NCBI GenBank assembly: GCA_008632985.1
Contig: QPGO01000261.1
Location: 1 to 64,000 of the forward strand
Source: Psammoneis japonica
Taxonomy: Eukaryota
Reading direction: 5' to 3'
DNA: 64,000 nucleotides
This document shows, piece after piece, positions 1,610 to 59,526 of the stretch. The notes under the pieces are model-generated. The model made no database searches and was not told the DNA's origin. It saw nothing but the letters and a program-made list of their open reading frames with translations. How positions within the stretch are numbered: the stretch's first letter is position 1; each line of letters begins with the position of its first letter. The position numbers and the translations under genes were made by a program.

Positions 1610-2202
1610 GATTTTGAAAACGAGACTTGTTTCCAAGCACTCCTGCAGCGCCAGTATCTTTTTCGTTTCACTCGAATATTTTGCGCAAGGATGAGTCGTC
1701 CGTCACATTCGTTGGCTGCGTTGCCTCTCTGCGATGAAACTGCTCGAATGGAATGGAGCAAATGTGTTGGTGTATCTGACGAGAAGGGGACAGTATAGTA
1801 TCAAGGATGGGAATGTTATATTGTAAATGGATAATGGCTCTTGCACAAGGGTAATGGCGATGCGGTCATGCCACACAAGATCCAAAGATGCCAAATGCCG
1901 GAGGAGAAAACGGAAGAAGAACATAAATCCTCATCATTCTCGTGCGTCAGTGGCGTTTTGCGAACGGATTGATTCTGATTCCTTTTTACAGTTAACTTAG
2001 TACAAGAGACTACGTTGAAAACTGAAGAAAAAGGAATCTTGGGCGAGTGTATCTTTTGATAGATCGTCACCCAATCAAAAAAGAACACCGCCGCACTCGT
2101 CCATTCATCACAGCCATCCCCATGCATCAAAGGAAACCCAGTTGCATCACTGCTGTTGCTCTGCTCTAGCACACATCACACACTCGAAAACAAACAAACA
2201 AA

Positions 2203-4861: not shown

Positions 4862-5683
4862 GAGCATCTTCGCCAGTGAGTCGTAAACATAAACATAAAC
4901 ATAGGAACATAACCTAAAAGGACAAGCGAACAGACTGCCCCGTATAAGTTTACGATTCTGCACGCGACCATCATTTTCAGTCGATCACAATCGTATTCAC
5001 ATTCGGCCGATGGTTGGGCAGACGTTGAGGTAACAACCAACTTCATACACGTATATCAATAACTAACTGATGGTAGGACGGACTTGTTGAATTTTACATG
5101 ACGCCATGGCGGCTTTGAACGCAATATACGACACAAATCACCGTCTATTCAAAGATATGTCGACGTCTATCAATAGAGAATAATTCATATTATATGTCTA
5201 TGTGTTACTATGTTGTGAAAGTCATTCTACATCGCGAAAACAAGCGAAATGTTATCACACGATGTATGCCTTATTCTCTTCTGACCCCATAAACCCCCCA
5301 TATGTCGGTTCTCCTCCCATATCTCGATGCGGCCGTATGTAAGTTCATAAGATACGACAAGGTCTTAATTGTTGGGCCTCTGTAAGGTCCTCTCATCAAG
5401 AAAGCGTCGATTGTCGTTTCGTCATGGTGACACGCACTTTCTACAGGATTTCTACACCCTTTTTGTACCAGAAATTTACGATTTTCGTTTACGATTTTGG
5501 AGGTGGATCGTATCCAAGGCCTGATTTGCGATTCACTTTCATGAATCGTAAATTCGAAAAGGGTTATTAGCGCAAAAAATATGTTTACGATCCACCGAAA
5601 ATGATGATTTTTTGTGAATCTCATTCGTATCGGAAGACGTACGGACATAGGTTTATGTTTACGACTCACTGGCGAAGATGCTC
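4862..5683. mobile_element. Non-autonomous PIF/Harbinger-like MITE (822 bp)
   Basis: Perfect 33-bp TIRs (GAGCATCTTCGCCAGTGAGTCGTAAACATAAAC at 4862-4894; reverse complement at 5651-5683) and a 3-bp TSD TCA (4859-4861, 5684-5686). No coding capacity seen. Confidence 0.8.
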
Positions 5684-8600: not shown

Positions 8601-8703
8601 CGATCCTTTCCATGAGAAATGAGTCATCTTCCCGTTGGAGAGGAGTGGGCATCTCCGGTGACACAAGTTCAATGTTGCATTCCCAACAAAATGCCCAAAG
8701 TGA

Positions 8704-9160
8704 CCCATGTAGAAATGGGGAATGAGTGCTCAAACCGCAGAGACAGAGATTTTCTGTGTGTGCAAAAATTGTGAGATTGTTTCAGTTAGAGTGCAAACAC
8801 GTGATGGTGTCTTTTTCCAAGAAACAAGAATTCTTGTTGCACAACAAGTCATTGGAAAGACTCAAGCACAAGTCTTTTGCAACACTTTGTTGACACTCAT
8901 GCGGAGCCAATTCGCGGGCTCATGCTTGGTGCTGTGTGCCGGTGCATCCTGCGCAGACCCTTCATGCAAGGTGAGTCACGTGCGCGATGGCCAGTCGCGC
9001 CGGTCTCAGTTGCATGGGTCGCTCCTGTGGCCTGTCGCAGGTCTCGCACCAGGAGTCGTGTTTTCTGCAACATGCTTCTGCAGGATCAGCATCGCTGCGG
9101 ACAGCCCACAGACACAGGAAAGTGGCATCATCGGCGGCCACGGCAGGGATGCCCACTGCA
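8704..9160. mobile_element. 457-bp insertion within retrotransposon A, family unknown
   Basis: Flanked by the direct repeat AAAGTGA (8697-8703, 9161-9167). Removing it restores the in-frame peptide LVTNTWVRSL-WAFCWECNIEL. Confidence 0.75.
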
Positions 9161-9294
9161 AAAGTGATCTGACCCATGTGTTGGTGACCAGCAGTGCCAG
9201 TTTCTTGCAGCCCATCTGACAGATTGTGCCACATGCCCCAAGCTCTAGCTGCATGTTCTCCCGCACTGCTGCCAGTTCTTTCCCTGTCACAAAA

Positions 9295-12115
9295 AAAACC
9301 AAACTCTAATTTTCAAGTGCCACCACACCTTTGCCCAGCAACACCGGCGCCGGCTAACCCACACTTCCAGCACACCCTAAAAGGATGCGGCAGAAATTGT
9401 GTGCAATTGGCCTGACCCGGCGCCCCCAGTGGGGGGCGCCCGACGGAAGCAGCTGCGAATGGTGCAAGTGCCACGTTTGGCCAGGCGTTTGGCTTCTTTC
9501 AAGCTGTCTTGGAGGCTTGGTCGCACCATTGAAATCCAATTTTGAATCCTCGTCGTCGAAAATGTACGGTGTTCCTCGACCGAGTCAAGCAGTGCGCCTC
9601 TGTCTTTCGCCAAATGCTCCTGACGTTTGTTGCAAATCGCAGTCAATTCGGCCTCCACCCTTCGCCGCTGGGAAGACTTACGAGATTCCACGTCGTGCCC
9701 GTGGACAAGCTTGTCATGTTCCTCCCACAGTTCCCACCAACTTCTCCATGTGCATGATCCGACCTGGACGGTCCAATCCGGTGGCTGCTTGTTCTCTTCT
9801 TGACATTGCCTCAAGATGCCTGAATCACAAAGGTGGCCGGATTGCAGCAGGTTCCACATGAGCGAACATCGACCGTCAAAGATCTGTCTCCAGCCAATGT
9901 CAGTCTGGGCTTTCCACAACTCTTTGAGTCTGCAATCCACTTCCGCAAGACAAGTGATTTCCTCGTTAAACCAAGCCTGCAACACATCCAGAAGAAAGTC
10001 ACGCAGGACAGGCATGGTGTCCACCTTATCACAATGGCGGCGCAATCCTTGTAAAAACTTCCTCCTCCACTGCTCGTTGTTGGGGCATCGTAGAATGTGA
10101 TCCCTGTCTTCCATTGGATGATCACACGCAATGCACTGGTGGGGACGCACCGGGTTGTGTCTGTGGACGATTTTATTCATGGGTGGCAAATCGTGAACCA
10201 ATTTGACCGTGTTCACGTGCTGCTTTGAATGGCGTTTCACTGGGATTGCGTGTGCATTCCAGTCAACTTGCTCGATCACCGTGTTGGTCCATTGGTTACG
10301 TTCGACGATGTGCTCTAGCAGTGGGGGAGCTGTGGCAGCGCATCTGATTTGTTTCTTGTAATTGGAAGTCACCGCACCGCCCTCTGTCTCGAAATAAGAA
10401 TGGCAATGAGGAAGATGCTTGACCTGATCGGTGTCGCACAGGCAGTGGCCTTGATGTGATCCTGCTTGTCTGTCCGCCCGGATGTTGACTCTTGCATTTG
10501 AGGGCAAGGCATGAACTGGAGTGTGCCTGTCTTGATGTCCTTTCACCCAAGAAACTGTAGGAAGAGTCATGTCCGTCGACTCCGAGAGCAGCTTCAACGT
10601 TCGCTGGGTGTAAAGAATTTCGTTCAAGACATCCCAGTCTGAGGACATGGCATTGGCGCCGTGATGCCGAATGTGAAAATCATGCATGGTGTGTGCTACG
10701 TCTCCTGGGTCGATCACAGGTGGAGCAGATGTCAACCGAGATAGGCATTCGACCAAAGCTTTATTGTCACAGTGAATCACCGCGTCCAGTGGAGCAGAAA
10801 TCCGACAACATTCACACAATCGGTAAATGAACCGAGCGATTGAAAGAACACCGTAGGCTTCCGCGCGATACGAGGAAGGTTTCTTCCCGAACACAGGGCC
10901 AGCACAATCGACCAGTGGAGTGCCGTTCAAGGTAATCGTCCAGCCGAACGTGGCTCCCTCACGTACAGAGCCGTCACTGCCTGCAGTAAGAGTTGACGAA
11001 AGAAAGTGTTGAACCAATGCTTGAGAGGACACATGTAGTTCCAAAGCATCAAACAATGTAGACTCCCAAAGTTCCAATCGTTGCAGGCTCTCGAGAAAGG
11101 AGTCTGGTGCATCCGGAATTGATGGAGGTGTGAGTGATGTACGCGGAATTTCAAATCGCCATCGTCCGTCCTCGAGTGTAGAAACCTCTGCTGGACAAGA
11201 CTCTTCGGAGGGGGTTGGAACGGTCTCGATCTCGACAATTGAATCAGTTGTAGTTCCGTTCGCCTGGAAAATGTCACAACCTTCCAATGAACGAACGTAC
11301 AAGTGCTCTTCAGACGGGGAACAGCAAGCGGTAGATTGCATCCTCATTTTTGACGGAGGAAACAACCAATCGCCGAGAGGTTCCTTCAGTTGAAGTGATT
11401 TCGGACGACACAAACTTGCACAGAATTTCCCCCACGCTGTCCAAGCTCGCTTGCACGGTTTGCATTGTTCGACGTTGTCAAGGGTGCTTGTGCCACTGCG
11501 CAGAGAGGGTTCCCCTTTCACTTTTGAACCGTCAATTGTAACACCATCTGAAAGAGTGACATCCGAAACAGATGAGACCCGAAGGAACAATCGGCAACAA
11601 TTAATCCACCGAATCTCTCGTGCAGAGAAGGTCTTGGATCTCAAAACGACATCCATCAGATGCTGGTCGTCATCTCGTTGTAGCGGAAGCACTCCATCAT
11701 GAGTTGGGAACACTCGGCCGTTGATCCGTTGCAGAAATGCTCGGACCGACGCGAACCATCGCGATTCCATGTGTGGTGACTCTGTCTCCACGTCCCACAA
11801 AAAAAACTGTCGCCTGTCCCCAAGTTTAACTGAATCCATGCGACGGCAATGTGAAGTAACTTGCATGGTTGATCTTCCCCAAGTTGAAGATGGGCAACTC
11901 CTCTTGAGTGCTTCAGCAGTTGCAGCAACTGGGCGACTCCTTGTTCTGTGTCGAGCGATCGAAACCCTCCTCCTCCTAAAGCCTGGGGACCGTAAAGGAC
12001 AAGACGTTTCGTGTTTCTGTTGTAGCCGCATTTCACAAAAATCGTTCGCACAGCCTTCTGTTGTGCCTGTTGCAATTCTTTCGGGAGAAAATTAGAGTTA
12101 GCCAGAACACATGTC
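9295..12115 (-). mobile_element. 5'-truncated non-LTR retrotransposon B (post-RT region, RNase H, zinc knuckle) nested in element A
   Basis: CGYNRN..LYGP..GGGGF..TEQG; RNase H motifs AGSDGSV, SSYRAEAYG, HCDNKAL, WVKGHQD; CIACDHPMEDRDHILRC; stop at 9377. Less mutated than A. Confidence 0.85.
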
Positions 12116-13415
12116 ATCGATGAGAGGTGACAGGCATGGCAAGCAAGCAAGCTGCCAATGGGCATTCGATGCTTCTCATCACGCCTCCCGTCAAGGACAA
12201 CCATGCCTCCATTTCCATTCAATTGTCCGCATCTTGCTCCATCAGCCCACTTCTCCACCTTCATGTTCAGTGCTTCAACTTGATGTTCCATTGATCCATC
12301 CAGCACTGCCCATGCTCCTGAGGTTTCTTCTGCGTCCCATGCCTCCAGCCATTGGATGGTCACCCGGTTTCCTTTGTGGTCCAAGATTGAGATGTCTCCC
12401 AGGGCTTCCACAATCGTTTGATGATGCCATTGGTCATCACACCATTTGAAGGTTGCCAGGGACCAGCGACTCTTGCTTGGCACCAAGGCACCTCTTGCAG
12501 CCCAAATCTCCTTCCCAGTGACAGTCCACCATGTGTTGCGTGCCTTCTGCAACCATCTCGTGTGTTGATTCCAAGTCCACTGATGTGTGGGGCAGGTCGG
12601 TGTCATCAACAAAGGCACAGCAGACACAATGAAATGTGTTCTGTGTGATTGGTGTTTTCGCCTGTGTCCCAAAACCTTCTTCTTTCAGCGTGTTTGTCAC
12701 AGGGATGCTTGCCAACAGCCAAATCCCGGGTGCAGCTCCGTGTCCCTGGAACATCCCTTGCAATGGGATTTCTGGCACTCTGCAGGGCTCGTCCGAGACT
12801 CCGTGTGCTGTTCGTGCACAGTGCTCAATCTGGCTGAGAGTTGCCACTGTCATGAAAAGTTTGTCGTCCTCCTCATCTGCACACATCCTTCTCATGCACA
12901 GGCATGCAATTGAGTGTAAGATCCTGTCGCAACATGATTTCGCGTCCGCACTGGTGACAGCTCCTGGTCAGTGGACTTGTCCAAACACATCACCCGCAAG
13001 AACTTTGTTGAATGCACAGATGATTGCCCTTTGTCTCTTCCTGCTGCTGTGTGCTTCTCCCATGGCATTTGTCTGTGCACGTCCGCCTGTTGTGCAATGG
13101 CCCACCTGCAGCATTTGTTCATTTTGTTGCACCGGGCATTGAAGAGTGCAATGACATGCAGTTTCTTGACATGACTGGACTCCTGTTTCTTTGGAGTCTT
13201 TACATCCACTGCCTTTGTCCAGCATTTGGGTGCATGGCCATGCTTTCCTGGGATTGCGGACACGCAAGCATCAAATTCAGCTGCTGCAGGATGTTGGCAA
13301 CTGGCTTTGCAATCCAAAAAGGCTGGTCCAAAGGGGCCACTCGATGTGTGTGCCTTCATTTTTTCCCATCCGTTGACATGTTCTTCAGCAGTGCATTTCA
13401 CATTGAGCTTTGGCA

Positions 13416-13594
13416 GGGGGGGGGGGGGGGGGGNNNNNNNNNNNNNNNNNNNNNNNNNNNNNNNNNNNNNNNNNNNNNNNNNNNNNNNNNNNNNNNNNNN
13501 NNNNNNNNNNNNNNNNNNNNNNNNNNNNNNNNNNNNNNNNNNNNNNNNNNNNNNNNNNNNNNNNNNNNNNNNNNNNNNNNNNNNNNNNNNNNNN
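13416..13594. other. Poly-G run and assembly gap
   Basis: G18 at 13416-13433 followed by an N run at 13434-13594. Confidence 0.98.
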
Positions 13595-16500
13595 GGTCGC
13601 CGTTTTCTCAATGGCACCATCTTAAAGAGCCACAACAATCAACAGTGTGTCGTGTGTCGTCAACTCACACACGGTGGTGTTGACACATGAGAGTGCAACG
13701 GGCTCATTGTTGGCTCATGCGGTCAAAAAGTGATGGGCAAACAAATTTGACATTTCAGCTGTTTTTGCTGCAATCAATCAATGTCAAAGCACAGCAAGGC
13801 ATGTGCATGTGAAATGAATTGTGTGCTGTCGACACATGTCAGTGTCATGGCGAGATCATGGCTGTTGATGGAGACATTGCGTTTGCGGTTGCCATTGTCG
13901 TCGCGTTTCGACAAGTCGTGAAAAATTTTGAAACATCAAACATTCGTGCATGTGGGCATGTTTTTGCTCATGTGTTCTGCATGTTGAAGATTGCTGCATT
14001 CGCGGAGTCGTCACATTTTTCATGCGTGACAAGAACATCGCATGTCTTGATGGGAGAGCAAGCAGACCGAGTGTTGAGAGCACACTGTTCCTGGATGACC
14101 TGTCCTGCCATGCACCGGTCTGCACGCCATTGTCATTCTCGCATGTGTGCCCTCCTTTTCTTTGAATCTAGCCCAGATCCATCTTCCTGGTCCAGTTGGG
14201 TCACTTCCTTTTGAGACGAGGTCGTGGCTGAGTGTGCGCTGGACCAGTTGTCCCACCCCTCTGCATTGTCTTTTTCCTGATGTGGAGTGATGCGCGGTGT
14301 TGGTGGCGACCAAGGTGTGGGATCGACGAAGTGTGCACCAGCAATCATTCCATTGTTGATTTTTTGGGATCCGCTCAAAGTTCAAGTTTGCCTCAATGAT
14401 TCCCATGGAGTCCACCTTGCACTTTGTTGTCCATTGTTCAACTTCGTTGTGCTTGTCATGCTTTGTTTTTTCCACTGGGAGGCCTCCAATGTTGTGGAAA
14501 GCCAAACGGCAGGCACTCTGGATTTTGATGTCAATGGAATCTCCCCACCATTCATCTGAATGCTGGCTGTTGTTTTCCAAATTTACATCCTCCTCAGGTG
14601 GTCGCCGGCCATTCCGCTGAGGATGATGTGGTCAAGGGATCTCCTCCAGTGCCCTCGGCCATGGCACTGGTGTTGTCATCCACCATTGACTCTCCTTCTG
14701 GTGTCTTTGGTGTGGCCAGATTATCTGCATCCTCTTCCATCCCTGGGCAAGCTTGCAGCTTGGCAAGTTCCACTTCAACCCTTTCCCCAGCTTGGCGTGG
14801 GTGGAGGGTGTGGTGGCCAGGGAAGCTCCGTCATGATGCGTTTCTGACTGATTGGCTTCTGCTGCATCCATTCCCTGAAAGTCCACTGACTTCTCCTCTG
14901 TTTTGGAGCATGTCATGTCGCCATCCTTGTTGCGGGCCATTTCAACTGAGCTGACGTCATCCGTGTTTTCCAGACATGCTGCCACTTGCTCCATTGCAGT
15001 CTTCACCTGTTTGACATTTCCCTTCTTCGGTTTTTTGTTTTGTTTGGATGATTCCCGCTTTTGGTGCTCCTGCTGCTCAGTGCTGATGTTGGACTGCCAG
15101 CTGTCTTTGATGCTCCACAGATCATCTTCAACAATCTCTGGGAGTTTCTCGTTGTCTTTGGAAGTTGTTGTGCCTGCATCTGGATCGTAGACTGCATCTT
15201 TGTAGATGGCAACACCAGCTGCTTTGAACCATGATGCCGCTTTTGGTCCAAGAAAGTGCAGCACCTCTGGAGCAAGGTCATTGATGGTCTGCATTGCTTC
15301 AACATGCACTTTCCTTGGAAAGGTTGTTGCGTGTTTGTTCGGCCGATTCCATTTGCAGCCCACGTGATGAAAGAGAGGGATCATCTTGTGTTTGTCAGAG
15401 GCAGGGTTGGCAACTCTTTTCCTCATTAGATGGCATTGGAGGTTGATTGGTTTCCCTTTTGGGTCCTTGATGGTGCTGTCAAGATCTTTGAACAGAGCAC
15501 AATCCACCGCAATGATTGCCTGCTCTGTGAAGCAGTGCTGGCATTGAGCAAGTTCTGTGACATTCTTCTTTGCATTGTCTGGGGCGCAGTGGAGTGCTTG
15601 GGAGGAGAAGTGTGGAACGAAGCACAGCATTGAGCCCAACATCTTCTTCCTTGCTCCTGCCCTCCAGATCCTCTCAGCTTGGATTCTTGCTTTGCATGCT
15701 TGACGGATCTCTGCATCAATGTGCAATGCCATGGGGTTCTTTTTTGGGTCGCCTCGATCAAATTTTGGACGTTTGCCGTCTGCCCCACATGTGATTCTCC
15801 ACTGCAGTCCCAGGTCTTGTGAATTCTGGATGCCCAGGCAGCACCTGACATTGTTGTGGAGAGTGACCTCTGTTGCAGTTTTGCTGCTGCAACAGAGCCA
15901 TCCTGTGCACTCAGCATGCATTGCTTGACAAGGAACAGGGTTCTGAGCAACAGAAAACTTTCCACATTCGATGTCCTCCATTGTTCTGTGCAGTTTTGAT
16001 CTGAACTCAGCCAGGCAAAATTTCGGTTCACCTTCAACTGCAAAGCAAATCAAGCAGCACATCACATGTTCTTGATTTCACTCATGGGTTGCAACGTCCC
16101 ACCTCCAAGAAGGAACTGAAGAGCTCCCTTTCTTGTGCCTTTCCTTCTGGAATGTCTTCTAGAGAGGTCCAATCACCGCAGGTCTCGCAAAGATCTGGGT
16201 CCCATGGACCAATGTGTGCATTGTCTCCTAAAACATTTTGAATGATTTCAAGAGCCTGTTCCAGCATTTTTGCTGTTTCCTTGAAGGGCTTGTCTGTCGA
16301 AGGGGCAGCCAACCACGCGTTGCATCTGATGTTCCAACAAGTTGCAGACGACTCTTCTTCTTCATCATCATCTTCTTCAGACTCTTCCATCGCTGATGCA
16401 TCTTGACAGTTGGTGCTCCTCAGATTTTCTGTTGGACCATCTTGTCCTTCTTCCATGCTGGTGTCTTCTTGTGGACCATCTGTTTCCGTTTCTTCCTCCT

Positions 16501-17059
16501 CATTTTCCTGAGTTTTTTCCTGACCCGATTCTTCTTGATCAGTTTGTTCCGGCGTGAAAGAAACATCCTGGACCATCAAATGCGTTGTCGCAGGTGTTCT
16601 CTTCTTCTTCGTTGTCTTCGCCATCTTCTGTCATGTGATCCTGACTGGTGATCTGTAAGTCTTTATCGTGCTTGTTCTTGCTTCGCGTACATTGACCATG
16701 AACCGGGGGCGTGACTATGAATGCTGTCTGGTCTCGTTTTCCTTGGTACGTGAATTTTGTGTAGAATCAGTACCAGAGTTACTGCCTCTATGTTGAAATG
16801 AGAAACGTTGAAGATTCTTTCGCTCAAAAGCTAGCTCTCTAGAGAGAGAGCGAGAGGACCATGTGTCGATCGGTCGATCGATTACTTTAGCGTTGCTACG
16901 CATCCGCACTGCAGCGCCGGCGTAACAGGTTAGCCACACAATGTGAACTCTACGAAAGCTTTCCAAGCTCGAGTCAATACCTGAATCTCTTTCACCCCGG
17001 GTTCTCTTCGACGTACTGTACTGCATTAGCTTGTCAGTACAGTGAATCCTAATCTGATC

Positions 17060-17340
17060 GGTCTGGCCACAGTATCTCCACCAAATAATATGCCGGTCCT
17101 CCGTCCGAGACTTCCACCAATTGATCTCCTTTACAGCTGTGGTGCGAATTTATTTTATTGACTTTCAGCATTATTATCCAAAGATGTGGCAGCACAGCAA
17201 ATTTCCTGTCACCGACGCATCATAAAGGTAATAAGACCCATAACACCGTAATCACACTCTCGAAAACAAGAGGACAGCAAAGCCAAGGCATTCGAAGAGC
17301 TATGTGTAACTTTCATTTTCACTAGCTCTGCGGTGCTATC
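17060..17340 (-). pseudogene. Degenerate second TIR half-domain downstream of ROCO copy 2
   Basis: Minus strand reads SSNALALLSSCFRECDYGVMGLITFMMRR*, resembling CTHAVIILSPNFRESRYCVMELNTFMMRR of the upstream TIR; out of frame with it. Confidence 0.65.
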
Positions 17341-17347
17341 CTTATCA

Positions 17348-20300
17348 CTAGAAGCGACTAGACCCAGTATTTTGATCATGAGCATATTCTACCAAACTTT
17401 CGGGAATGGGAGGAGTAGTTTCGTCTAGACGATGCTCCTCAACGTATCGCACCAGCTCATCTTCCAATGATAATTCATCCCATTCTGGCTTGTCGCGATC
17501 ACATTTGAGACGTTCAATGAGGTCTGGCCACAATCTTCCGACTAGATACCTTGCGGGATCATCTATCCGAGCCGGAAAGTAGATGATTCTCTTTAGAGCT
17601 GGAGCAAACCTGTCGACTTCGTCGAGCTTCCAAAGATACGGGAATACCTTCAAGTTTTTCTGCTCCCGTCGCATCATGAAAGTGTTGAGCTCCATGACAC
17701 AGTAGCGACTCTCTCGAAAGTTGGGTGACAATATAATCACGGCATGGGTACACGTGTGCGCAGCTTCGAGTAGAGAACGCATCTGGTCTTCCCCAGTTTT
17801 CAAGCTTCCATCATCGATGAAGGTCTTGACGCCCAATCTTTTGGTGAGAAACCAACGCGTAGGACGAGCAATAGTCTCTTTGGTATCACCTCTATGCGAC
17901 AGAAACACATACGGATCACCACCAAGGTTGACCTGCCAAACACTGCTAGGATCCAGAACACCTTCCATTGACAACTCTCCCACATCTGTCTCGATACCAT
18001 CCAACCGTGCTTGCGTGTACAAGCTGGAAACGTTTCGTCCGTCAACTACAATCTGCGAGTGGGTGCCGTGGTGGCCGATTTCTTGAGCTTGAGAAAAGTG
18101 AGCAAGACGAGCCATCATTTGATTCAGCAGCGCCTTGTGCCTCGATGCCTTTCCGATCTTGTTGTAGCTGGCTTCTCCGTTCGTACAAACCACCGGAAAA
18201 TTAACATTTCTTCTGCGCTTGCGACAAAAATGCGAACTCATTCTCCTCTCTGGATTTGTCACTTTCGACCACCCAAATAACTGGGAATCTTGTCCTCTGC
18301 CAGCACTAACGCAGCAATGACATGCTAGCACCTCGTCATACTGCAAACCTGCGAAGTGATCCGTCACTTCGTCACGAACAAAGCTAACGGCACCGTTCAA
18401 CAGGCCCCAAGTTTCGTCCCTAAGCACGTCGTCCTTCGGACAGCGTACAGAAAACGACAAGTACGGCTCGCGGCCGACTATCTCCACAAGCTCGGACCGG
18501 ATCCATCGATCCTTCTCGTCAACCACAATCGCGCCATTCAGATATGTGCATACACAATTCCCATATGCATGGGTTGCAGCAGCAAAGTGTGCAGTAAGAC
18601 TCGAAGGGCAGCCCCTGTACATTATCAAGCGCAAATCTCGCTGCTCTTGTCCGGCTGGTACTTGCTCCGGCCACATATCCTCCCAATCTGACGGTATTTC
18701 TTTCTTTAAACGGAAGAGAACCACGGGAATAACATCAGCTGTGACTCGGGAACTGGTGTTCGTAGAAGAGTTCGGATGAGGTGACGAAGCAAATATGACG
18801 TCCGATTCAAGAAGCATCTGCAGAATCATTTGGTAGTCTTCTCGATCAATATTGAACTCACGCCACAAAAAGGGAAGAATCAGTGCGTCCAGCTCTCCGT
18901 TATATGTCAAATCTTTCAGCCCCTCCATTAAATCTTGTCGTAGTCCAATTCTTTTACTCTCGCAATTCTCGACGAAACTCTCAACTTCCTCGCCAAACTC
19001 CGATGAGTCTATTTTTTCGAGTGTCAAAGTATGGTCTATGAGAGGTGTGATCAAGTCGGTTACAAAAGACGGTTGCAAATACGCCAGCCCAGCATCAACA
19101 AAAATACTGCCCCGGGCTTCAAGAAGTCCTAGTGCATCGTCAAACGTAGTGTTGTCAGCCAGGGGGGCGTGCAAGAAGCGGAATTGATCCCACAATGAAT
19201 TGAGCCTTTCAACTGAACAGTATGGTCCTTTGGCTGGTATCTCAATCTCGCCGTCTGTAGTCGTCTTCATGTTCCCAATCTCGCCCAACGGGATAGCATC
19301 ATCGGAACTTGCTGCAGAGAAAAGCTCTTCTTCATCGGCATCTGCACCGCACTGAAGAACAGCGCCAAAGAATTTCCACAGCTCCTGCCATGACTTTGGG
19401 ATTAGCGTACCGACACTTGATAACCTCGGCTCCGCATGATCCTGCGTATGCCTAAAGATGGTATTGCTCACCTCTTCCCTAGCGCATGCAATGGCACTTT
19501 CACTCGTTACGGATACTTCCAGGACATTGGTTAGGACCCGGAGCAGTGGCGGCTTCTTTCTTTCCGTCGATTCCTCAGGTATGACACGATCATGAAGAGC
19601 AACTTCCTCTCTTTCTCTATTCGCGGCGGCATCACGCCATTTTTGAAGCTGCCCTTGGACTTTATTCTGGAGCCATTGCACTCTTTTCTCGAGCCATTGC
19701 TTTCGTTCAACCTCGTCCAACTCGTCCGGCACAATATCAACCTTAGATAGGACAAGTTGCACCACGGCACCCGGTGCCCTTGCCTGTAAAAGCACAAGAA
19801 AGCGATGCACTACTTCTTCATAGAAATCGTCGTGTGCTTTGTCCGCCGCCACGACAAGTAAAAAGAGTGACAACGCTGTCATGAATGGTGCCTGCCCCAC
19901 AGCATAGTCTTGCTGACCGCCGCAGTCATAGACCATTAGCGTAATTGGATCATCGCTGTATTCATCGGGTGCGTCTATCTGCACAGGTTCCACATCAAGA
20001 TAGATGGTCCGTTCCTCCTCACCCTCTGTGCGCGCCGGGAAACGACCGGCAATGGCATTGCGCAGGCTCGTCTTTCCTGCTTCCCCGTCCCCCACGAGCA
20101 CCGCCTTGAGCTGTCTGGATGTGGTTGCCCCCCCTTTATCCACGGCATCAAAGTAACGAGCAATCGCCTCGAGGCCCTGTTCCGCAATCTCGGACGGGGG
20201 TTCCAACAGTGGATCTCCAACCACATAAAACTCGCAGTTTCCCTCAAGCTTGACAAAGGAGCGTGGAAGTCTTGAAATTAGATTGAAACTCAGATCAAGC

Positions 20301-21106
20301 TTCCGGAGATTCGACGCCAATGTCTGGTTCGTCTCCAGTGCTTTGCCAATGGCCGCGGCAACCCCGTCTCCAATGGGATTGGCGAAGAGAGAAAGCTCCG
20401 TCAATGTTTTATTTCTTTCTAACGCTTTTCCAATGGCCGCGGCACCCTTGCGCTCAATGGAATTGCCGTCGAGAAAAAGCCCCGTCAATGTTTTGTTCGT
20501 TTCTAGCGCTTTTAAAATAGCTACGGCACCCTCGTCTCGAATGGCATTGTTTGTAAGATGAAGCACCGTCAATGTTATATTCATTTCTAGCGCTTTTCCA
20601 ACAGCCGCAGCACCCTCATGTCCGATGGAATTGGCACCAAGATAAAGCACCGTCAATGTTGTGTTCGTTTCCAGTGCTTTTCCAATGGCCACGGCACCTT
20701 TGGCTCCAATGGAATTTTCGCCGAGATGAAGCCACGTCAATGTCGTGTTCCTTTTCAGCGCTTTTCCAATGGCCGCGGCACCCTCGACTCCAATGGAATT
20801 GTTGGAGAGATAAAGCACCGTCAACGTTGAATTCGTTTCTAGCGCTTTTCCAATGGCCGAAGCACCCTCGTCTCCAATGTAATTGTATCCAAGATTAAGC
20901 TCTGTCAATGCAGTGTTCATTTCTAGTGTTTTTCCAATGGCCACGGCATTCTCATCTCCAATGTAATTCGTGTAGAAACTAAGCTCCGTCACTGTTGGAT
21001 CATTCTCTAGGAAGAGACGAATGCGCTCTTGAGCATGTGGCGACAAATGAATGAACCAATCCGCTGACATGTCAATGCTGCTGGAACTTGACGAAGACTG
21101 TTGCAT
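17348..21106 (-). CDS. LRR-ROC-COR-TIR ROCO-family receptor-like protein, copy 2 (intact, ~1252 aa)
   Basis: Eight 28-aa LRRs; ROC (LVGDGEAGKTS, RTIYLDV, YDCGGQQDY, LSKVD); COR region with a CxxC; C-terminal TIR (YVFLSHRG, TFIDD, AVIILSPNFRESRYCVMEL, with the Glu expected at the TIR catalytic position). Confidence 0.93.
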   Translation of the reverse strand: MQQSSSSSSSIDMSADWFIHLSPHAQERIRLFLENDPTVTELSFYTNYIGDENAVAIGKTLEMNTALTELNLGYNYIGDEGASAIGKALETNSTLTVLYLSNNSIGVEGAAAIGKALKRNTTLTWLHLGENSIGAKGAVAIGKALETNTTLTVLYLGANSIGHEGAAAVGKALEMNITLTVLHLTNNAIRDEGAVAILKALETNKTLTGLFLDGNSIERKGAAAIGKALERNKTLTELSLFANPIGDGVAAAIGKALETNQTLASNLRKLDLSFNLISRLPRSFVKLEGNCEFYVVGDPLLEPPSEIAEQGLEAIARYFDAVDKGGATTSRQLKAVLVGDGEAGKTSLRNAIAGRFPARTEGEEERTIYLDVEPVQIDAPDEYSDDPITLMVYDCGGQQDYAVGQAPFMTALSLFLLVVAADKAHDDFYEEVVHRFLVLLQARAPGAVVQLVLSKVDIVPDELDEVERKQWLEKRVQWLQNKVQGQLQKWRDAAANREREEVALHDRVIPEESTERKKPPLLRVLTNVLEVSVTSESAIACAREEVSNTIFRHTQDHAEPRLSSVGTLIPKSWQELWKFFGAVLQCGADADEEELFSAASSDDAIPLGEIGNMKTTTDGEIEIPAKGPYCSVERLNSLWDQFRFLHAPLADNTTFDDALGLLEARGSIFVDAGLAYLQPSFVTDLITPLIDHTLTLEKIDSSEFGEEVESFVENCESKRIGLRQDLMEGLKDLTYNGELDALILPFLWREFNIDREDYQMILQMLLESDVIFASSPHPNSSTNTSSRVTADVIPVVLFRLKKEIPSDWEDMWPEQVPAGQEQRDLRLIMYRGCPSSLTAHFAAATHAYGNCVCTYLNGAIVVDEKDRWIRSELVEIVGREPYLSFSVRCPKDDVLRDETWGLLNGAVSFVRDEVTDHFAGLQYDEVLACHCCVSAGRGQDSQLFGWSKVTNPERRMSSHFCRKRRRNVNFPVVCTNGEASYNKIGKASRHKALLNQMMARLAHFSQAQEIGHHGTHSQIVVDGRNVSSLYTQARLDGIETDVGELSMEGVLDPSSVWQVNLGGDPYVFLSHRGDTKETIARPTRWFLTKRLGVKTFIDDGSLKTGEDQMRSLLEAAHTCTHAVIILSPNFRESRYCVMELNTFMMRREQKNLKVFPYLWKLDEVDRFAPALKRIIYFPARIDDPARYLVGRLWPDLIERLKCDRDKPEWDELSLEDELVRYVEEHRLDETTPPIPESLVEYAHDQNTGSSRF

Positions 21107-21743
21107 CTTTTTGAAGACGAGACTTGTTTCCAAGCAATCCAACAATCCCAGGCAAGCAGCGCCAGTATCTTTTTCGTCTCACTCGATTTTGTGCAAGGAT
21201 GAGGAGTCCGTCACATTTGCTGGCTGCGTTGCCTCTCTGCGATGAAACCACTCGAATGGAGCAAATGTGTTGGTGTATCTGACGAGAAGAGACATTATCA
21301 AGGATGGGAATACTGTGTTGTATGAGGGATCATGGATAATGGCTCTTGCAATGGTGTCATGATAATGGCGAACGATGATTCTCCGTAGACGAGATGCCAA
21401 ATAATGCCGGAGGAGAGAACGGAAGAAGAATCATCATCGTCGTGCGTCAGTGGCGATTTGAGCACGGATTGCTTCTAATTCCTTTCTTTCAAGTAAAATT
21501 AGTACCACATTGTACGTAAAAAGGAATGAAAAGAAGGAATCTTGGGCGAGTGTATCTTTTGATCGTCATCACCCAATCAGCAAATTAATGTCACCGCCGC
21601 ACTCACTCGTCCATTCGTCCATTCATCCCGCCTCCATCCTCCATCACCCACCACGGCCACGTCGTTGTTGAAAAGGCCATTGTGGTTGCATGACTGTTGC
21701 TCTGTTCCAGCCAACATCACACACACACAAAACAACAAACAAA

Positions 21744-22774
21744 ATGGGAAAAAAGACCTTGGGTGCGAGTCTCAAGGGCAAAAAGCCCACCCATCGAGGC
21801 ACTTCAAAGACTGCCATCACGTCCAATCCGGGTCGGATCGGGGACAAACTGAAACGTTCGGAAATGTGCGGAAAGTGTCTCATGGAAAAGAAGCATCAAA
21901 AGAACATGGCTCATCGTCAACGTGCCAAGGAAGCCGAGGCACTCGGAGAAGAAGCTCCAGAAAAGCCCGCGCCGCAAACTCTGGAAAGCACGCGTGAGTT
22001 GGAGCCAACGTTGGCAAAACCAAACGATGAAGAAGTTGCCACCGACCAAGCTGAAGGTGAGTTTGCACCGCACTTTAACGATCAAGTGCAGCCCAAAATT
22101 CTCATCACCACATGACCACGTCCGTCGAAGCAGCTCTTTTGTTTTGTTGCAGACTTGCAAAGATTCTTTCGGCAGGCGCGCTTTTGTCCTCGCAAATTCT
22201 TCACAGTCAAGGAAATTTGTGGCTTTGCTGCCAATCGCGGCTTTTCCCATTTGACTGCATTGAGTGAAAAATCCAAGGCATGCAACGGCATGACCACATT
22301 TCGCGTTTGCGTGTTTGTGAAGGACACAACGTGACGGCCGGCCCCACGGCCTTTTTCAAGGTGAGCAACGTCATTTCGTCGACTGACATTCCCAACCACG
22401 GCTCCGCCACAAGTCACATTCCCGAATTGGTTTTGAGTGGATTTGGAACATGACTTGGACATCGTGTTGGGCATTTTTTGGGAAGTTTGTTTCCGCACAA
22501 TGCTCAGTTTCAGGGACGGCAGGTGGCGACCTTTCACAATCAGCGGGACTTCATCTTTGTGCGGCATCATCGACATGTCTTTGAGCCATCCAAGAATGTC
22601 AGCAAAGAGACAAAGCAACCTAAGACCAAGGCAAGATTGCAAGAACTGGGGCCTTGATTTGCTCTCAAGCTCCGGTGGATTCAGGAGGGTGCTTTTGACG
22701 CCATGTTTGGTGAATGTGAATGGATTCACAAGCGCAAAGAGATGGACATGATGCGCAGAAAGTTTCATTTGCAA
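21744..22774 (+). pseudogene. RPF1: RPF1 pseudogene, hypermutated
   Basis: Collinear with 2203-3228. CGA-to-TGA stops at 22113 and 22451, indels near 22300-22330, stop TAA changed to CAA, and Tyr codons changed to Cys or His. Confidence 0.95.
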
Positions 22775-24065
22775 TGAGATTTTGGCAGCACAGATGATGA
22801 TTGTCAACAATCTGTTGTTTGTAAGTTGTTTTTTTTTGTCCAGTGCTGCAACAAAGGATGCGGACACGGACTGGAAATGACCACCAGTTCGGTCAATGTG
22901 GCGCGCATCTTTGACATGCCGCTGTTTCGTCTTGCACTGTTTCATTGACAACTTGTGTGCGGCACTCTTCTGCCTTCCTCACTCTTGTCCACAAAACAGA
23001 ATGCCAGTGTGGCCCAGCCCACATCAGTGTGGTTTGGGGTCTCAATTCATGGTTGTTCTGTCAATCTGTTCGATGAATTCAACCAGCTGTGCTCTCCAAC
23101 CTTGCGGAATGCTGTCTTGCACACAGCCAGAGAGCACCGGTGCTTGACTTGATGGCAGCAAGATTCAAAAGTGGCTGCAGAGTTGCAAATCAAAATGCTG
23201 CAGAGCAAGACATGATGGATTGTTGGGAGTGCTAAAAACACACAACAGTGGCTTGCCTTTTGTTCGAAATGTCTTTCATTTGAAATGCTCAGCCAATCTC
23301 GCCATTGGTGAGCACTCCAGTTGCAACCTGCCTGCAAACACAAGTGAGAGTGAGCATGGCAAAAACCAGGCACTGGCAACAATCACCAAGAATGAACACA
23401 ACATCAATGTGGCACTCCAAACCAAAAGAGCTTGCTTGGAAGGGCGCCACGCAACAAGCGCAGAGGCAGGAGCAGAAGGGTGCATCATTTTGCTCTTGCA
23501 CTGAAAAACAGAACAGCAAGAGCAAATCTTCTTTCTGTTTGGCCCTTTCCTCTTTTCCAGAATGCTGCTCTCATTGTGGCCAAGCAACAAGTGGAAGCAG
23601 GTGCCAAGGTTGCAGGGTCAGCGGCCTGTTGCAGCTCTTGGCTTGGCACCAGCAGCAGCAGCAGCACAGCAAGCTGCGCCATCAAAACACAAAGGGTGCA
23701 GAGATGATGACCATGGGCTCCAGCTTTGCAAGGCACAAGAGGAGCCACAAAGGTGCTGGTGGCATGGAGCCTGAGCTCTGAGAAACTCACAGAAGCTGCT
23801 GTCATCTCTGGGGGCAAGCACGCAAGTTGGCGCATTTGTGAGCTGTGCATCTGATGTGGTGAAATGCAAACTAACTGCATCTGTGAAGTGGAAGCAAGAG
23901 CTCAGCTCCCTGATGTGGAAAAAGTGTTGTGGTCCAAGGCCAAATGATTGTGCAATTCTGGGCCATTCACAAGCAAAAGGTGCAGAGCACCCCAGTCTGC
24001 TGGTCAGGCGTGTGAAACATGCTGGTCTGGGCAGAGCTCCATGCAGCTGTGAGACCCAGGCCTCA
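22775..24065 (+). repeat. Diverged copy of the sequence downstream of RPF1 copy 1 (~3230-4400)
   Basis: Shared blocks such as GGTGCATCATTTTGCTCTTGCACTGAAAAACAGA at ~3872 and ~23479. Confidence 0.85.
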
Positions 24066-27000
24066 AGCAACTTGAAGCTGGCATCACAGGTGCGCTCCGG
24101 ACAAGCACACAGACCATCACCACGGCAACAACATGGAAAACTTGTCAAAAAACCACCAGAGCTGATGACGACATTGGCGTGGCAGACAAGGCATCTAAAC
24201 ATCAGCCGTTTTTTGGACCATTGCAACAGAAGCTCTGTCAGACCCACATCAGCACACCATTGCAATCATCCATTTGGAGACGCACATTTTGGTGAGAAAT
24301 GTTGAAACATGCCATTGCACTCCTTCATAACACCATGTTGCATGCAGATGATGCACCAACTTGCCATTTGCTGGATTTTTGGCACCCACTGAGTTAAAGT
24401 CTGAGTTTGTAAAAAGGCAAGCAAATTGAAAATCAAAATGGTGTCGTCAGCATGTCCAAGGCTCGCCACTTGTTGTCTCACTCAACTTTCTTGCCAGAGC
24501 AGCCAATTCTCGCTGTCTTTCCCAGCATGAGCACATTGACAAATCCAACATCATCATCACACAGTCAAGCCCATTTGAGTGGTCAATGGCATTGACCAGA
24601 TGAACATTTTTGAAGACTCTGACAAAGCAGCTGCGGTGCACTCAGCCAAGCATTTTTGAGCGGAAGAGAGTCAGGCGGATGGGAGTGAAAATGAAGAATG
24701 AAGTTGGCACATGGTTCAAGAAAAAAGCAGTGATGAAATGTTGACAAAACACTCTGATGCTGCTGTCACTCCACAGAATGATGAACAACAGCAAACAGAG
24801 CTCCTCCCTGGCTTGTGTGCACTCTAGATTGGTTGCAAAGACACAAACATCAAATCTGAAAATGGAAAAGTGTGGCTTGCAAATCAGTGCTCACGGATTG
24901 CTTCACCCATTTGCAGCATGAAACAGGGCAGACATGGTTGTCACGAGGTCAAAGACAAATTGGAAAGCAGAGCATTGCCATGAAATTGGTTTGTGATGAT
25001 GTTGTCATCCAGCCTTGGTGTCAAGAATGGGTCAATGTCAATTTCACCTCATCGCAGTGCAAGTCACGTGCATTGAATCCCATGGGACCCACTTGACTTG
25101 ACATTTTTGGTGGAACTGGCTAGACTTTGACCCCAGCCAGAGCCACAAAACACAGAAGACATGAGCATTGTTAGTCTCCCACCCTTTGGAACATTGTCTT
25201 GCAAGAACAAAACAGGCATGCATTGCTCATGGTGTCAGGCATTTGAAAATGGAGCTGACATTTTGCGGAGCACCTTTGTCACACGTGAAAGTGCAAGGGA
25301 CAATTTTCAGTCATGGCTCTGCAGCCAACGCAACCCTCTGCTTGCGACCCCAAAAGTCATCGGGAGCTTTGCACCAGCACGACATCAGTCAGCTGGAAAT
25401 GCACCTTGGCAAAAAATGGGGGGTTTTGTGATCACATGTGGAAGCATGGCATTGGGGCCCACAGCTGCCAGGCATCTGTTGTGCATTGTGAGTTTGAAGT
25501 TTGTGTTGACAACTTCTGGGCACCCCGTGTCTGCTGCAAGCAGCCAAGGCAAGTGTGACAAGCAGCACAGGAAGCCCCACAGGATTCTCTTTTGGCACAC
25601 CAACTTGCTGGTTCAACGCTCACTCCAAAGAGTTGCCGGCACTGCATTTGGTGCCCAACAATGTCAACACTCTGCTTGCAGTCAATTGATTGCTGCAAAC
25701 CTGCACAACAAGTGGCAGAGGAAGCAGCAGACCCAACAGCTGAGGTGAAAGATGTGGTTGTGGAAGAGACAACAAGAGCCGCTCACAGGCCCTCTGACCC
25801 AAAAAATGAAGCCAATGCCAAGAGCCACTTGCAGCCTGAGAAGAAGTTCCGTCCTTCATCACTGAACAGCAACACTCACAATGCAACATGCAAAGCTGTC
25901 AAAGAGAAGATCATCCATCAGCACATGCAGAATGTTGCAGATGGCATGATCTCAGAGCTGATGTCTGCAAACACTGTCAACCACACTCTTTTAAGTTGGG
26001 CAAAGCATTGAGGCTGTCAAGGAGCAAACTCAAACTGCTGCACTCTGCCTGCCATGCAGATGACACCCAGGTTGATGCGCGAGCACTCAATGATCAAGAA
26101 CACTGCCGCAGCAAACACGCGCCCCCACAGAAGGAAGGAATCTCTGATGTGCACAGTCCACACAAAGTTGTGCAATGAAAAACCTTGACCATGACAAGCA
26201 CTTCAAGTTCAGCACCTTCAGCTCATTTGTCCTGTCTCACATTGATTCAACCCAATGAACACCATGGGCACATGTGCAGGCTTTGAAGCAGAGTTGCAAC
26301 AACGGACATGAAGAAGTGCTCACGGCCACTCCAGAAAACAATGGTGCGTTTGAGTTGTGACACACAGCCAGCCCATTTCTGTGGCTGCTCAACAACACAC
26401 AATGATGCACATGACATCAGAGCTCCTTGTTGTGATGGTTTTTCATTGTTTTCATGGATGATTGAGCAATTGCTCAAACTTGCGCACCACAAGTTTGAGC
26501 AGTCTTCTGAGTTTGAGCAAATGGGCAATGCAAATTTGAGCAATTTCTCAAACTTTTGATGGCAAAAGCAAAGACCAGAACTCTCAATCATGGCCGTCAA
26601 GTCTTGCTTGGTGTGGGCTTCACTGCAACTCAACACACAGTTTGGCGCCAAAGCACAGCTTTCCGCCCCAGCTCCATGCTTCCACGTGCAAAAATTGACC
26701 CCCTGTTTTTAACCAAATGCCCACCTTGATTGACCAACAGCACACAGATGTGAAGTTCATGATGCTTTTGGGGTCCCAGAATGGGGGTGAATGTCAGTTG
26801 CTGGCCAATCACTGAAAATCGTCCCCCCACACTTTCACGTGCAACAAAGGTGCTCCATGAAAAGTCACCTCCATTTTGAAATGCCAGATGCCATGAACAG
26901 TGCATGCCTGTTGCATCCTTGCGCAAGACATTGGGTTAAAGAGTGGCTGTGAGACCAATGATGCTCACATGTTGAGCATTTTGTGGCTCCAGCGGGGGTC

Positions 27001-28400
27001 AAAGTCAAGCCAAAACTTCCAAAAAATTTGAGTTGAGAGTGGGTCCCACAGGATTCAATGCTTGTGACTTGGAGTGTGAGTTGACCCTTTCTCAACACTG
27101 AGACAGACAACAACAACATCACAAACCAATTTCATGGCAACACTCTGCTTTCTAATTTGTCTTTGACCTCATGACAACTGCACTTGACCTCTTGCAAGAA
27201 AGTTGAGTGACGCAACAAGTGACGAGCCTTGGATGCATTGACGACACCATTTTGATTTTCAACTTGCTTGCCTTTTTACAAAGTTGGAGCTCAACTCAGC
27301 AGGTGCTGGAAATCTGGTTGGTGGTGGGTGCATGAAGAATTGTCGTGCAACGTGCCATCACGACAAGCAAAAGGGTCCCACAGGATTCAATGCTCATGAC
27401 TCAGAGTGTGAGTCAACCCTTTCTCAACACCGAGACAGACAACAACATCATCACAAACCAATTTCATGGCAACACTCTGCTTTCCAATTTGTCTTTGACC
27501 TCGTGACAACTGCATTTGACCTCTTTCATGCCACAGACAGGCCAAGCAATCCATGAGCACTCATCTGCAAGCCACACTTTTCCATTTTCAGATTTGACGC
27601 TTGTGTCTTTGCAATCAATCTAGAGCACATGCAAGCCAGGGAGGAGCTCTGTTCACTGTTGTTTGTCATTCCACAGAATGACAGCTTCAGAACATTTTGT
27701 TGACATTGTTTGACTGCTTTTTTCTTGAACCACACACCAACTTCATTCTTCATTTTTGCTCCCATCTGCCCGACTCTCTCCCATTCAAGAACACTTGGCT
27801 GAGTGCATTTCAGCTGCTTTGTCAAAGTCTTGAATGAGATTTGTCTGGTCAACAACATTGCTCAAATGGGCATGATGACGTGACGATGACATGATGACAA
27901 CGTTGGATTTGTTGATGTGCTGATGCAATGAGAGTCGGCTGTGGCGGCAAGAAAGTTGAGTGAGACAACACCAAGTGGTGAGCCTTGGATGCATTGACAA
28001 CACCATTTGATTTTCAATTTACTTGCCTTTTTACAAACTTGGAGTTTAACTCAGCGGGTGCTGGAAATCCGGTTGGTGGTGGGTGCGTGAAGAATTGTCA
28101 TGTGACATGCCGTCACAACAAGCAAAAAGGCATGTTTCAAAAATTCTTGCTAAAATGCTTGTCTCCAACTGGACTTTTACAATGGTGCAACGTGTGGAGT
28201 CTGACAGAGCGACAGTTGCAAATGTCAAAAAATGATGATGGTTTAGACACTTGTTGAAGCAATGCAATTGTCGCCATTGTCGGTGAGAGATTGGATCAAT
28301 TTCCCCACGTTGTCACCACGGCGACAGTCTGCACACTCATCCAGAGCACACCTGCCATGCCAGTTTGGAGTTGCTCAAGGCCTGGGTCTCACAGCAGCTG
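24045..28400. repeat. Large diverged inverted repeat (arms ~24045-25460 and ~26660-28400; internal duplications in the right arm)
   Basis: For example, 24045 CAGCTGTGAGACCCAGGCC matches the reverse complement of ~28378-28400; 24780-24900 matches the reverse complement of 27545-27660; 25080-25460 matches the reverse complement of 26660-27060. Confidence 0.85.
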
Positions 28401-57789: not shown

Positions 57790-58437
57790 GTGCCTGACGC
57801 ATCAGGATGCAGTGCGTCTGCACCTGTCTACATCCGTCTTCACTGCTGCACGCACTGCGGTGCTGCAGCGCACCCTTTCAAACCTTCATTGATGTTCATT
57901 TTTTCCTTCCTTTTCCTTTTCTCTTCTTCTTCCATCTGGCTGGGAGGAACTGCTGGACAGCCGGTGTCATTTTACACTGCTGCTTGGCGCCACTTGGCAC
58001 AACAAAATGATCAGCCTCCAGCGCGAACCTCGTTTTGCCGAGTGTTTCACGTCCCAAGGCTGAGGGCTTGTGGGAGGAGCAGGTTGGGAGTGTGTCATCT
58101 GTCTCGATGCAGCAAGTTAGGCATGCTGGACATTCAGTTGCGCAAGGACAATGACGTTGGGCATGGCCAGATTACAATAAAGTGACAAGGACCAAACTGG
58201 CAGAGAAGTGTGGAATCGTTCTCTTCTTTTTAATTTGTGGCAAATGCAAACAGTCAGTTGTGTTTGCAAGTTCGTCGAAAGGTTCTTCAAAGCAGGACCC
58301 ACAGCATTTTTTCTCATCTTAGCGACTTTCTTAAAGCTCTGGCGTTGCAAGGAGCTCCTCAAAGGCTAATCCTTCATCATGCCTGAACAACAGTACAAAG
58401 TTCTGTTGGCTCGTATACAAGAGCGATTTAGTGTTAA

Positions 58438-59520: not shown

Positions 59521-59526
59521 TCACTA

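Follow-up and report, generated by a model that had tools for sequence, protein, structure and literature searches.

Candidate LRR-Roc-COR-TIR receptor genes with variable repeat arrays form a cluster of paralogues in the diatom Psammoneis japonica

Results

Three paralogous genes and the layout of the copy 2 protein

In a 64,000-nucleotide stretch of Psammoneis japonica DNA (assembly GCA_008632985.1, contig QPGO01000261.1, positions 1 to 64,000 of the forward strand; hereafter, the window), we identified three paralogues, all on the minus strand, that combine arrays of leucine-rich repeats (LRRs) with Roc, COR, and TIR domains. We are inclined to regard these paralogues, referred to as copies 1, 2, and 3, as diatom genes for cytosolic single-chain sensor-switch-effector immune receptors; because the domain layout matches that of an innate immune receptor, they are candidate pathogen sensors. 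Position 17348 is the end of the copy 2 stop codon and position 21106 belongs to its first ATG, so that the interval named in the original prediction corresponds exactly to copy 2. As the prediction also held the gene to be intronless, it is relevant that copy 2 reads as a single uninterrupted frame of 1252 codons, which agrees with the open reading frame (ORF) part of that claim. In copy 3, an open 796-codon frame (59527-61917) encodes COR, a CARC/CDIC knuckle, and TIR (SRYCVMEL, 59866-59889), while the copy 1 TIR lies outside view, the gene being truncated by the window start.

From its N-terminus, the copy 2 protein is predicted to contain a cap, eight 28-residue LRRs of the ribonuclease inhibitor (RI)/NLR type, two ordinary LRRs, Roc, COR, a cysteine-rich knuckle, and TIR (Table 1). 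Pfam detected LRR_6 (99.5 bits, above the cut-off), Roc (PF08477; 35.4 bits versus a cut-off of 27, P0001 residues 347-470), TIR_2 (48.1 bits versus 28), and TIR (40.9 bits versus 21.3). Furthermore, 18 PDB TIR sequences matched the copy 2 TIR at E<=0.01, and a phmmer search aligned the C. tepidum Roco protein (6hlu_A) over P0001 residues 51-474. No STAND NTPase domain (NB-ARC or NACHT) was present among the 11 Pfam families found at E<=0.01. Of the GTPase motifs, the P-loop and DxxGQ are intact, and G4 reads SKVD.

Residues 300-1060 were modeled from an input alignment of 37 relatives, yielding a Roc-COR model with a predicted local distance difference test score (pLDDT) of 84.7 and a predicted template modeling score (pTM) of 0.86. 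The top Foldseek matches of this model were LRRK1 (8e05_A, E 2.5e-18), LRRK2, 6hlu_A, and CtRoco RocCOR (3dpu_A, TMt 0.65), with further matches to M. barkeri Roco2 (4wnr, TMt 0.71) and to the COR-only structure 3dpt_A (E 7.2e-6, TMt 0.62); the alignments to LRRK1, LRRK2, and CtRoco RocCOR extend over ~700 columns. Since these are Roc-COR structures, copy 2 contains the Roc-COR tandem, with a COR domain lying directly C-terminal of Roc on the evidence of its modeled fold rather than of Pfam. Searched against the PDB, the alignment profile also matched LRRK2, LRRK1, and CtRoco over Roc-COR, a result given little weight, as the alignment contains canonical Rocos. The LRR-ROC-COR-TIR order originally proposed is thus recovered, by Pfam for LRR_6, Roc, and TIR_2 and by fold comparison for COR.

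The proposal that the TIR carries a glutamate of the catalytic type is likewise consistent with the alignments: in 4/4 printed alignments, the glutamate of SRYCVMEL, which is retained in copy 3, lines up with that of RPV1 (SRWCLDEL), Roq1 (STWCLEEL), or a bacterial TIR, and thus with the glutamate of plant TIR NADases. Enzymatic TIR activity needs a catalytic glutamate (PMC12489294), and eukaryotic TIRs produce cyclic ADP-ribose (cADPR) in a glutamate-dependent manner (bioRxiv 10.64898/2026.04.20.719644). The cysteine-rich element between COR and TIR (in copy 3, CARC at 60568-60579 and CDIC at 60472-60483) is conserved across the family alignment in the form CxxC...C and resembles a zinc knuckle. 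As no membrane-like segment was found outside the Roc core of the copy 2 protein, this protein is probably cytosolic.

Repeat arrays and the location of their variability

Tandem Repeats Finder detected 84-bp arrays at 986-1496 in copy 1 (6.1 copies, 83% matches), 20328-20997 in copy 2 (8.0 copies, 75% matches), and 62547-62950 in copy 3 (4.9 copies, 80% matches), in agreement with the 6, 8, and ~5 repeats initially counted; variability of copy number, as had been claimed, holds here only between paralogues. Higher-order periods of 252 bp (three units) and 168 bp were also evident. In register, each 84-bp unit is one 28-codon LRR. In a model of the N-terminal 332 residues of copy 2 (pLDDT 90.6), a three-residue strand recurs every 28 residues, at unit columns 23-25, and helices occupy columns 5-17. 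Given the 28-residue length, the LxxLxLxxN strand followed by a helix, and the horseshoe fold, the units are of the RI/NLR type, and the modeled fold is nearest to NOD2, NLRP3, and ribonuclease inhibitor.

Variability was determined for 15 whole and 5 partial LRR units. The highest amino acid entropies were found in columns 28, 25, 27, and 23 (3.13, 2.97, 2.59, and 2.11 bits, respectively), and these four columns lie on the predicted beta-strand or immediately after it, at exposed positions. Before viewing the data, we had defined the face as the x positions of LxxLxLxx (columns 22, 23, 25, 27, and 28). In pairwise comparisons, face codons have a proportion of nonsynonymous differences (pN) of 0.49 and of synonymous differences (pS) of 0.32 (omega 1.89), compared with 0.116 and 0.28 (omega 0.36) in the non-face columns; omega of the face stayed between 1.74 and 2.28 when each unit in turn was left out. 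By pN, the face ranks 22nd among the 98,280 possible five-column sets, and all 18 of 18 face tetrads are distinct. The LRR units therefore vary chiefly at those residues that the predicted beta-strand face exposes.

All six face strings quoted in the original prediction are present (in units c1u-1, c1u0, c1u1, c1u2, c2u2, and c3u0). Its description of the scaffold as nearly fixed was somewhat overstated: half of the 28 columns (14) show no variation or just one deviating unit, but moderate variability is seen in columns 5, 6, 9, 17, and 19, chiefly in copy 2, and the exact 16-mer NSIGDEGAAAIGKALE occurs in just 4 of 17 unit heads.

Young and old segments within the paralogues

As had been noted from the letters alone, copies 1 and 3 are nearly identical upstream yet differ in their LRR faces: 1637-2202 matches the DNA upstream of copy 3 at 563 of 566 positions (2 mismatches, 1 gap), while those LRR units that align unit-for-unit are 81-86% identical. 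The first 84 coding bases match at 80 of 84 positions, and over 1-1412 versus 61552-62950 the two genes are ~85% identical. The arrays are not collinear, the best partner of c3u1 being c1u4. These two units share all 69 of 69 scaffold bases but differ at 7 of 15 face-codon bases, and 7/7 of these differences are nonsynonymous. Such a pattern is unexpected under neutral point mutation; recombination with a breakpoint immediately ahead of the strand would fit it, as would strong selection acting on the face.

Synonymous divergence (dS) between copies 2 and 3 depends on the segment: residues 490-700 and the TIR have values of 0.14-0.24, residues 701-1000 values of 1.5-2.0. The ratio of nonsynonymous to synonymous divergence (dN/dS) is 0.18-0.56 in 8/8 C-terminal segments. 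The global nucleotide alignment of these two copies is unreliable in the old middle segment, and indels were used from the conserved 5' part only. Because dS differs by segment, upstream identity gives way to a drop in the LRRs, and the arrays are not collinear, the paralogues are mosaics of young and old segments. Gene conversion and unequal exchange have apparently shaped them, and outside the face selection has been purifying. The suggestion that this receptor family diversified by unequal crossover is in line with at least three paralogues, differing unit numbers, three-unit periods, and mosaic units, which together fit unequal crossover plus gene conversion.

Reading frames and read support of copies 1 and 3

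The frame of copy 1 is broken at a run of eight C residues (792-799), where copy 2 has seven (20128-20134). In the window sequence, copy 3 has three net frame changes, resulting from many 1-2 base deletions between 62670 and 61887, several of them in short homopolymer runs. Contigs from two DNA runs of one sample were placed on 58500-64000, which contains copy 3. These read contigs restore copy 3 letters at 62096 (61.2/61.2 depth in X1), 62385, 62392, and 62399, and a loose contig end at 62624 adds two more. Because the read contigs restore letters, keep copy 3-specific variants, and read in frame over the restored stretch, the frame damage of copy 3 is at least partly consensus error, located where the paralogues are most alike. 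Relative to the window, the read contigs have small indels at 58585, 62096, 62385-62399, 63149, and 63969; thus, residual indel errors exist in the assembly consensus at these places. The 3-base upstream difference between copies 1 and 3 at 63149 is not in the read contigs.

That copies 1 and 3 might be an assembly artefact had been named as a finding that would refute the prediction. The two copies are not duplicates created by the assembly. A read contig of 132 bases (62947-63078) runs, with zero differences, out of the shared segment and on into sequence specific to copy 3; a loose contig end at 62840 bears a copy 1-type unit tail; and the genes differ by ~15%. The word depth of the read contig at 63245-63582 (130.9, compared with 58-76 for unique pieces, i.e., ~2x) is a weak hint in the same direction.

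Relatives with exchanged C-terminal domains

A word-indexed protein search returned 8 proteins at E<=1e-3, the best relative being P0002, a 1139-residue LRR-Roc-TIR_2 protein with 41% identity; next came proteins from the pelagophyte Chrysophaeum taylorii. An exhaustive search yielded 2464 matches at E<=1e-3, in which the Roc-COR part and the TIR part match different proteins. Among the 37 relatives (14 + 23) scanned with Pfam, Roc and TIR occur together in P0002 only. Other Roc relatives end in PNP_UDP_1 (P0013), Trypsin_2, SPRY, GT4-conflict, OTU, Death, or caspase domains, and this type of TIR is elsewhere joined to Kelch, NACHT-WD40, or WD40. The relatives thus keep LRR-Roc-COR and exchange the C-terminal domain. 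A metagenome scan with P0001 gave 17 pattern matches, 0 of which were relatives by tblastn.

Surroundings of the receptor genes

The divergent Brix-domain gene next to copy 1 (Table 1) has its nearest named relatives in diatoms (Ditylum, 74%; Thalassiosira oceanica, 73%; also Eucampia, Aulacoseira, Nitzschia, Fistulifera, and Chaetoceros). A second Brix/RPF1 copy (21744-22774, +), duplicated along with copy 2 and situated upstream of it, has 88.8% identity to 2203-3228. The list of + strand ORFs of at least 150 amino acids has no entry at 21744-22774, and at 20 of the 25 positions where the intact gene has TA this copy has CA or TG; it resembles a pseudocopy altered by mutation, with an unmutated receptor gene as its immediate neighbor. 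A 271-amino acid ORF that lacks a Pfam match (3766-4581, +) lies in a further segment that recurs at 23353-23859 (75% identity) and is co-duplicated with the receptor-Brix unit.

Across most of the window (3001-16000 and 22001-57000), TA dinucleotides reach 0.03-0.2 of their expected frequency, and CG is likewise low in many places, while in the three islands that contain the ROCO-TIR genes (1-3000, 16500-21500, and 58000-64000) TA is at 0.4-0.7 of expectation. The depletion fits TpA-to-TpG/CpA repeat hypermutation, and the receptor genes were spared this loss of TA although they are repeated. As a source of the differences between copies, TpA hypermutation was rejected for the three genes on account of their TA content; it applies to the Brix pseudocopy.

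Mobile and repeated elements were also observed in the window. These comprise a Helitron-like element (44461-50727, -) with PIF1/AAA_30 helicase, DUF6570, and Helitron_like_N, whose TA is at 0.09-0.2 of expectation; a tandem repeat just past the Helitron-like ORFs (50873-51446; periods of 129, 119, and 248 bp); an ORF with Integrase_H2C2 and rve (42419-43702, +), probably the relic of a long terminal repeat (LTR) retrotransposon; and, within TA-depleted DNA, a pair of ~1-kb inverted repeats (24043-25100 versus 27364-28398, 74% identity).

Table 1. Receptor gene copies, predicted domains of copy 2, and adjoining features in the window
Feature	Position	Strand	Basis or remarks
Copy 2	17348-21106	-	Complete uninterrupted gene, 1252 codons + stop; LRR-Roc-COR-TIR; ORF translation, Pfam LRR_6/Roc/TIR_2
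N-terminal cap with Ser run and first beta-strand (residues 1-46)	20969-21106	-	Helices and first strand in model
Array of eight 84-bp/28-residue RI/NLR-type LRR units	20297-20968	-	Tandem Repeats Finder, register, model, fold matches
Two ordinary LRRs and DPLLEPP...AIARYF linker before Roc	20108-20296	-	phmmer match to C. tepidum Roco 6hlu_A
Roc GTPase	19736-20107	-	P-loop GDGEAGKT 20069-20092, DCGGQ 19913-19927, SKVD 19736-19747
Predicted COR-A/COR-B region, Cys-rich knuckle, and linker	18017-19735	-	Model and Foldseek; CHCC 18311-18322
TIR	17567-17908	-	SRYCVMEL 17687-17710, Glu codon 17690-17692
C-terminal tail, ~70 residues	17351-17566	-	Accompanies this TIR type; TIR-only relatives align to query residue ~960/966
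Copy 1	1-1609	-	5' part only (window start cuts gene); six LRR units 986-1496; one frame break
Copy 3	59527-63063	-	Complete in extent; ~5 LRR units 62547-62950; small deletions clustered 62670-61887
Intergenic region of copy 1	1610-2202	.	Common to copy 1 and divergent Brix/RPF1 gene; near-identical to 63064-63658
Intergenic region of copy 3	63064-63658	.	Upstream of copy 3; counterpart of 1610-2202
Brix-domain (ribosome production factor 1) gene	2203-3228	+	Pfam Brix 1.4e-27; part of duplicated unit

Discussion

In the mechanism that we propose for these receptors, the variable concave LRR face would bind a non-self or altered-self ligand; binding would shift the nucleotide and dimer state of Roc-COR and thereby bring TIRs together; and the assembled TIRs would cleave NAD+, causing its depletion or producing signals of the ADP-ribose type, and so lead to defence or cell death. 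New specificities may arise by unequal crossover and short-tract conversion among the 84-bp units within and between copies, with selection maintaining the differences in the face.

Several points weigh against this receptor reading. The immune role and the NADase activity of the TIR are inferred from sequence, the latter from alignment of the SRYCVMEL glutamate with that of RPV1 and Roq1, taken to be the catalytic residue. Pfam COR had no match at E<=0.01 in the copy 2 protein, the alignment behind the Roc-COR model held five canonical Roco proteins that possibly helped the fold, and G4 is SKVD instead of the canonical NKxD. RI-type LRRs are common in non-immune proteins, and axonemal proteins and RanGAP were among the matches of the sequence and fold searches. 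Moreover, copies 1 and 3 are frame-broken in the window sequence. Finally, parsimony on a tree built from the 15 whole units, which recombine and hence violate the tree and which offer few comparisons, gives an omega of 1.61 for the face, not significantly above 1 (binomial P 0.14 versus neutrality), so that relaxed constraint on surface residues could account for the variation. Of the per-site dN/dS comparison proposed at the outset, this leaves the excess of nonsynonymous change at the face relative to the scaffold but not an omega above 1: the same parsimony counts are 47 nonsynonymous to 8 synonymous changes at the face and 43.5 to 36.5 elsewhere (Fisher P 1.8e-4), with the scaffold significantly below neutrality (P 1e-4).

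Roco proteins in other eukaryotes have non-immune roles, and it is conceivable, though we think it unlikely, that the present genes encode a Roco signaling protein with a housekeeping or developmental role (e.g., in the cytoskeleton, cell cycle, or cell-cell recognition), in which the TIR acts as an adaptor and the LRR variation reflects weak surface constraint on duplicates. The frequency of RI-type LRRs outside immunity and the statistical standing of the face omega would suit such a protein. It would not, however, lead one to expect that the TIR retains a glutamate aligned with that of enzymatic TIRs, that relatives have caspase, Death, GT4-conflict, PNP, and protease domains at the same position, or that variation is focused on the strand face, with every face distinct and with a unit pair, c1u4 and c3u1, whose scaffold is unchanged. 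Somewhat less probable again is the view that copy 2 is the sole living gene and that copies 1 and 3 are decaying pseudogenes whose decay contributes part of the diversity. The +1 break of copy 1 and the frame changes of copy 3 favor this view, and the read contigs corrected directly only four of the roughly two dozen missing copy 3 letters, in runs that are probably from the assembly's own sample and so are not independent of it. Yet the letters that were restored put copy 3 back in frame, the deletions lie within ~800 bases and are followed by the long open frame, dN/dS between copies 2 and 3 is low throughout the C-terminal segments, and TA is retained in copies 1 and 3 but lost in the Brix pseudocopy beside copy 2. 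That copies 1 and 3 are one locus assembled twice can hardly be correct: this view draws on the 99.5% identity of the upstream regions and on small errors in the window consensus, but the genes themselves diverge as described, and both copy-specific contigs and, as a weak hint, the doubled word depth of the shared upstream contig speak for two loci.

The design has several known counterparts. Prokaryotic LRR-AP-GTPase(Roc)-COR proteins with variable C-termini, which have been predicted to act as counter-invader systems (Kaur, Iyer, Burroughs, Aravind 2021, PMC8195603), similarly combine fast-varying N-terminal LRRs, Roc and COR, and a swappable C-terminal effector. Unlike in these systems, the host here is a diatom nucleus, the window containing a Helitron, an LTR integrase, and a Brix gene with diatom relatives; a 28-residue RI/NLR-type array precedes the ordinary Roco LRRs; and the paralogues form a three-copy cluster with conversion between copies. 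A eukaryotic protein with the order LRR, Roc/Ras, low-scoring COR, and TIR_2 has been reported as 'NG1' in sea anemones, and the combination was noted in several bacteria (van der Burg et al. 2016, PMC5094078). NG1 belongs to an animal lineage and is likened to copy 2 by domain order, not by sequence, and in the accessible text of that report neither a variable-number RI-type array nor a tandem cluster is described.

Among stramenopiles, the LRR-ROCO genes of brown algae (Zambounis 2012, PMC3341825; Teng 2024, PMC11378527) are comparable as candidate receptors with shuffling of LRR units and variability on the concave face, and there, too, COR was missed, by InterProScan (PMC11378527). Those genes, however, have one LRR per exon with phase-2 introns, diversify by exon shuffling, and mostly are without a C-terminal effector, whereas the copy 2 array lies in one uninterrupted ORF that ends in a TIR. 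In the accessible text of Teng et al. (PMC11378527), diatoms are credited with four ROCOs per species or fewer, and a TPR-ROCO-TIR protein is named for the red alga Chondrus only. We found no description of LRR-Roc-COR-TIR genes, or of a cluster of them, in diatoms in the literature covered by our search, which did not extend to subscription journals.

Plant TIR-NB-LRR (TNL) and animal NOD/NLRP receptors share the logic of sensor, nucleotide switch, and effector; the LRR fold of copy 2 is nearest to NOD2/NLRP3, and its TIR sequence is nearest to plant TNL TIRs and bacterial TIRs. Unlike in NLRs, the switch is predicted to be a Roc-COR GTPase rather than a STAND NB-ARC/NACHT ATPase, and the LRRs come first and the TIR last. 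By analogy, the protein may work in an NLR-like manner, yet it is not an NLR. With the C. tepidum Roco protein and human LRRK1/LRRK2 it shares the modeled Roc-COR fold and, with the former, the motif linking LRRs to Roc; it differs from them in having neither kinase nor WD40, in a sequence identity of 12-15%, and in its G4 motif. Judged by its sequence, the copy 2 family is a eukaryotic, uninterrupted-ORF form of the known LRR-Roc-COR-TIR design, with an RI-type LRR array.

Beyond the receptor reading itself, we tentatively entertain a broader possibility, for which our confidence is low: that diatoms use a Roc-COR-switched counterpart of NLRs as a germline-diversified repertoire of innate immunity, in which intronless LRR-Roco-TIR genes would create new ligand faces by swapping 84-bp units or face segments smaller than a unit, both inside and across tandem paralogues, in a cluster kept free of the TpA-erasing mutator that destroyed a co-duplicated neighbor.

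Little is known of how diatoms, which are major marine primary producers, recognize viruses, bacteria, and eukaryotic parasites, and a 2025 study of a different microalga stated that no TIR-based antiviral system had yet been described in microalgae (PMC12489294). The cluster described here provides concrete candidate genes, with a putative TIR enzyme and a predicted Roc-COR switch that can both be tested and an LRR surface that can be read from sequence. With it, the LRR-Roco-TIR design, which the papers cited report from sea anemones and bacteria, would also be represented in a photosynthetic stramenopile, a point of relevance to whether the design is old or was put together several times.

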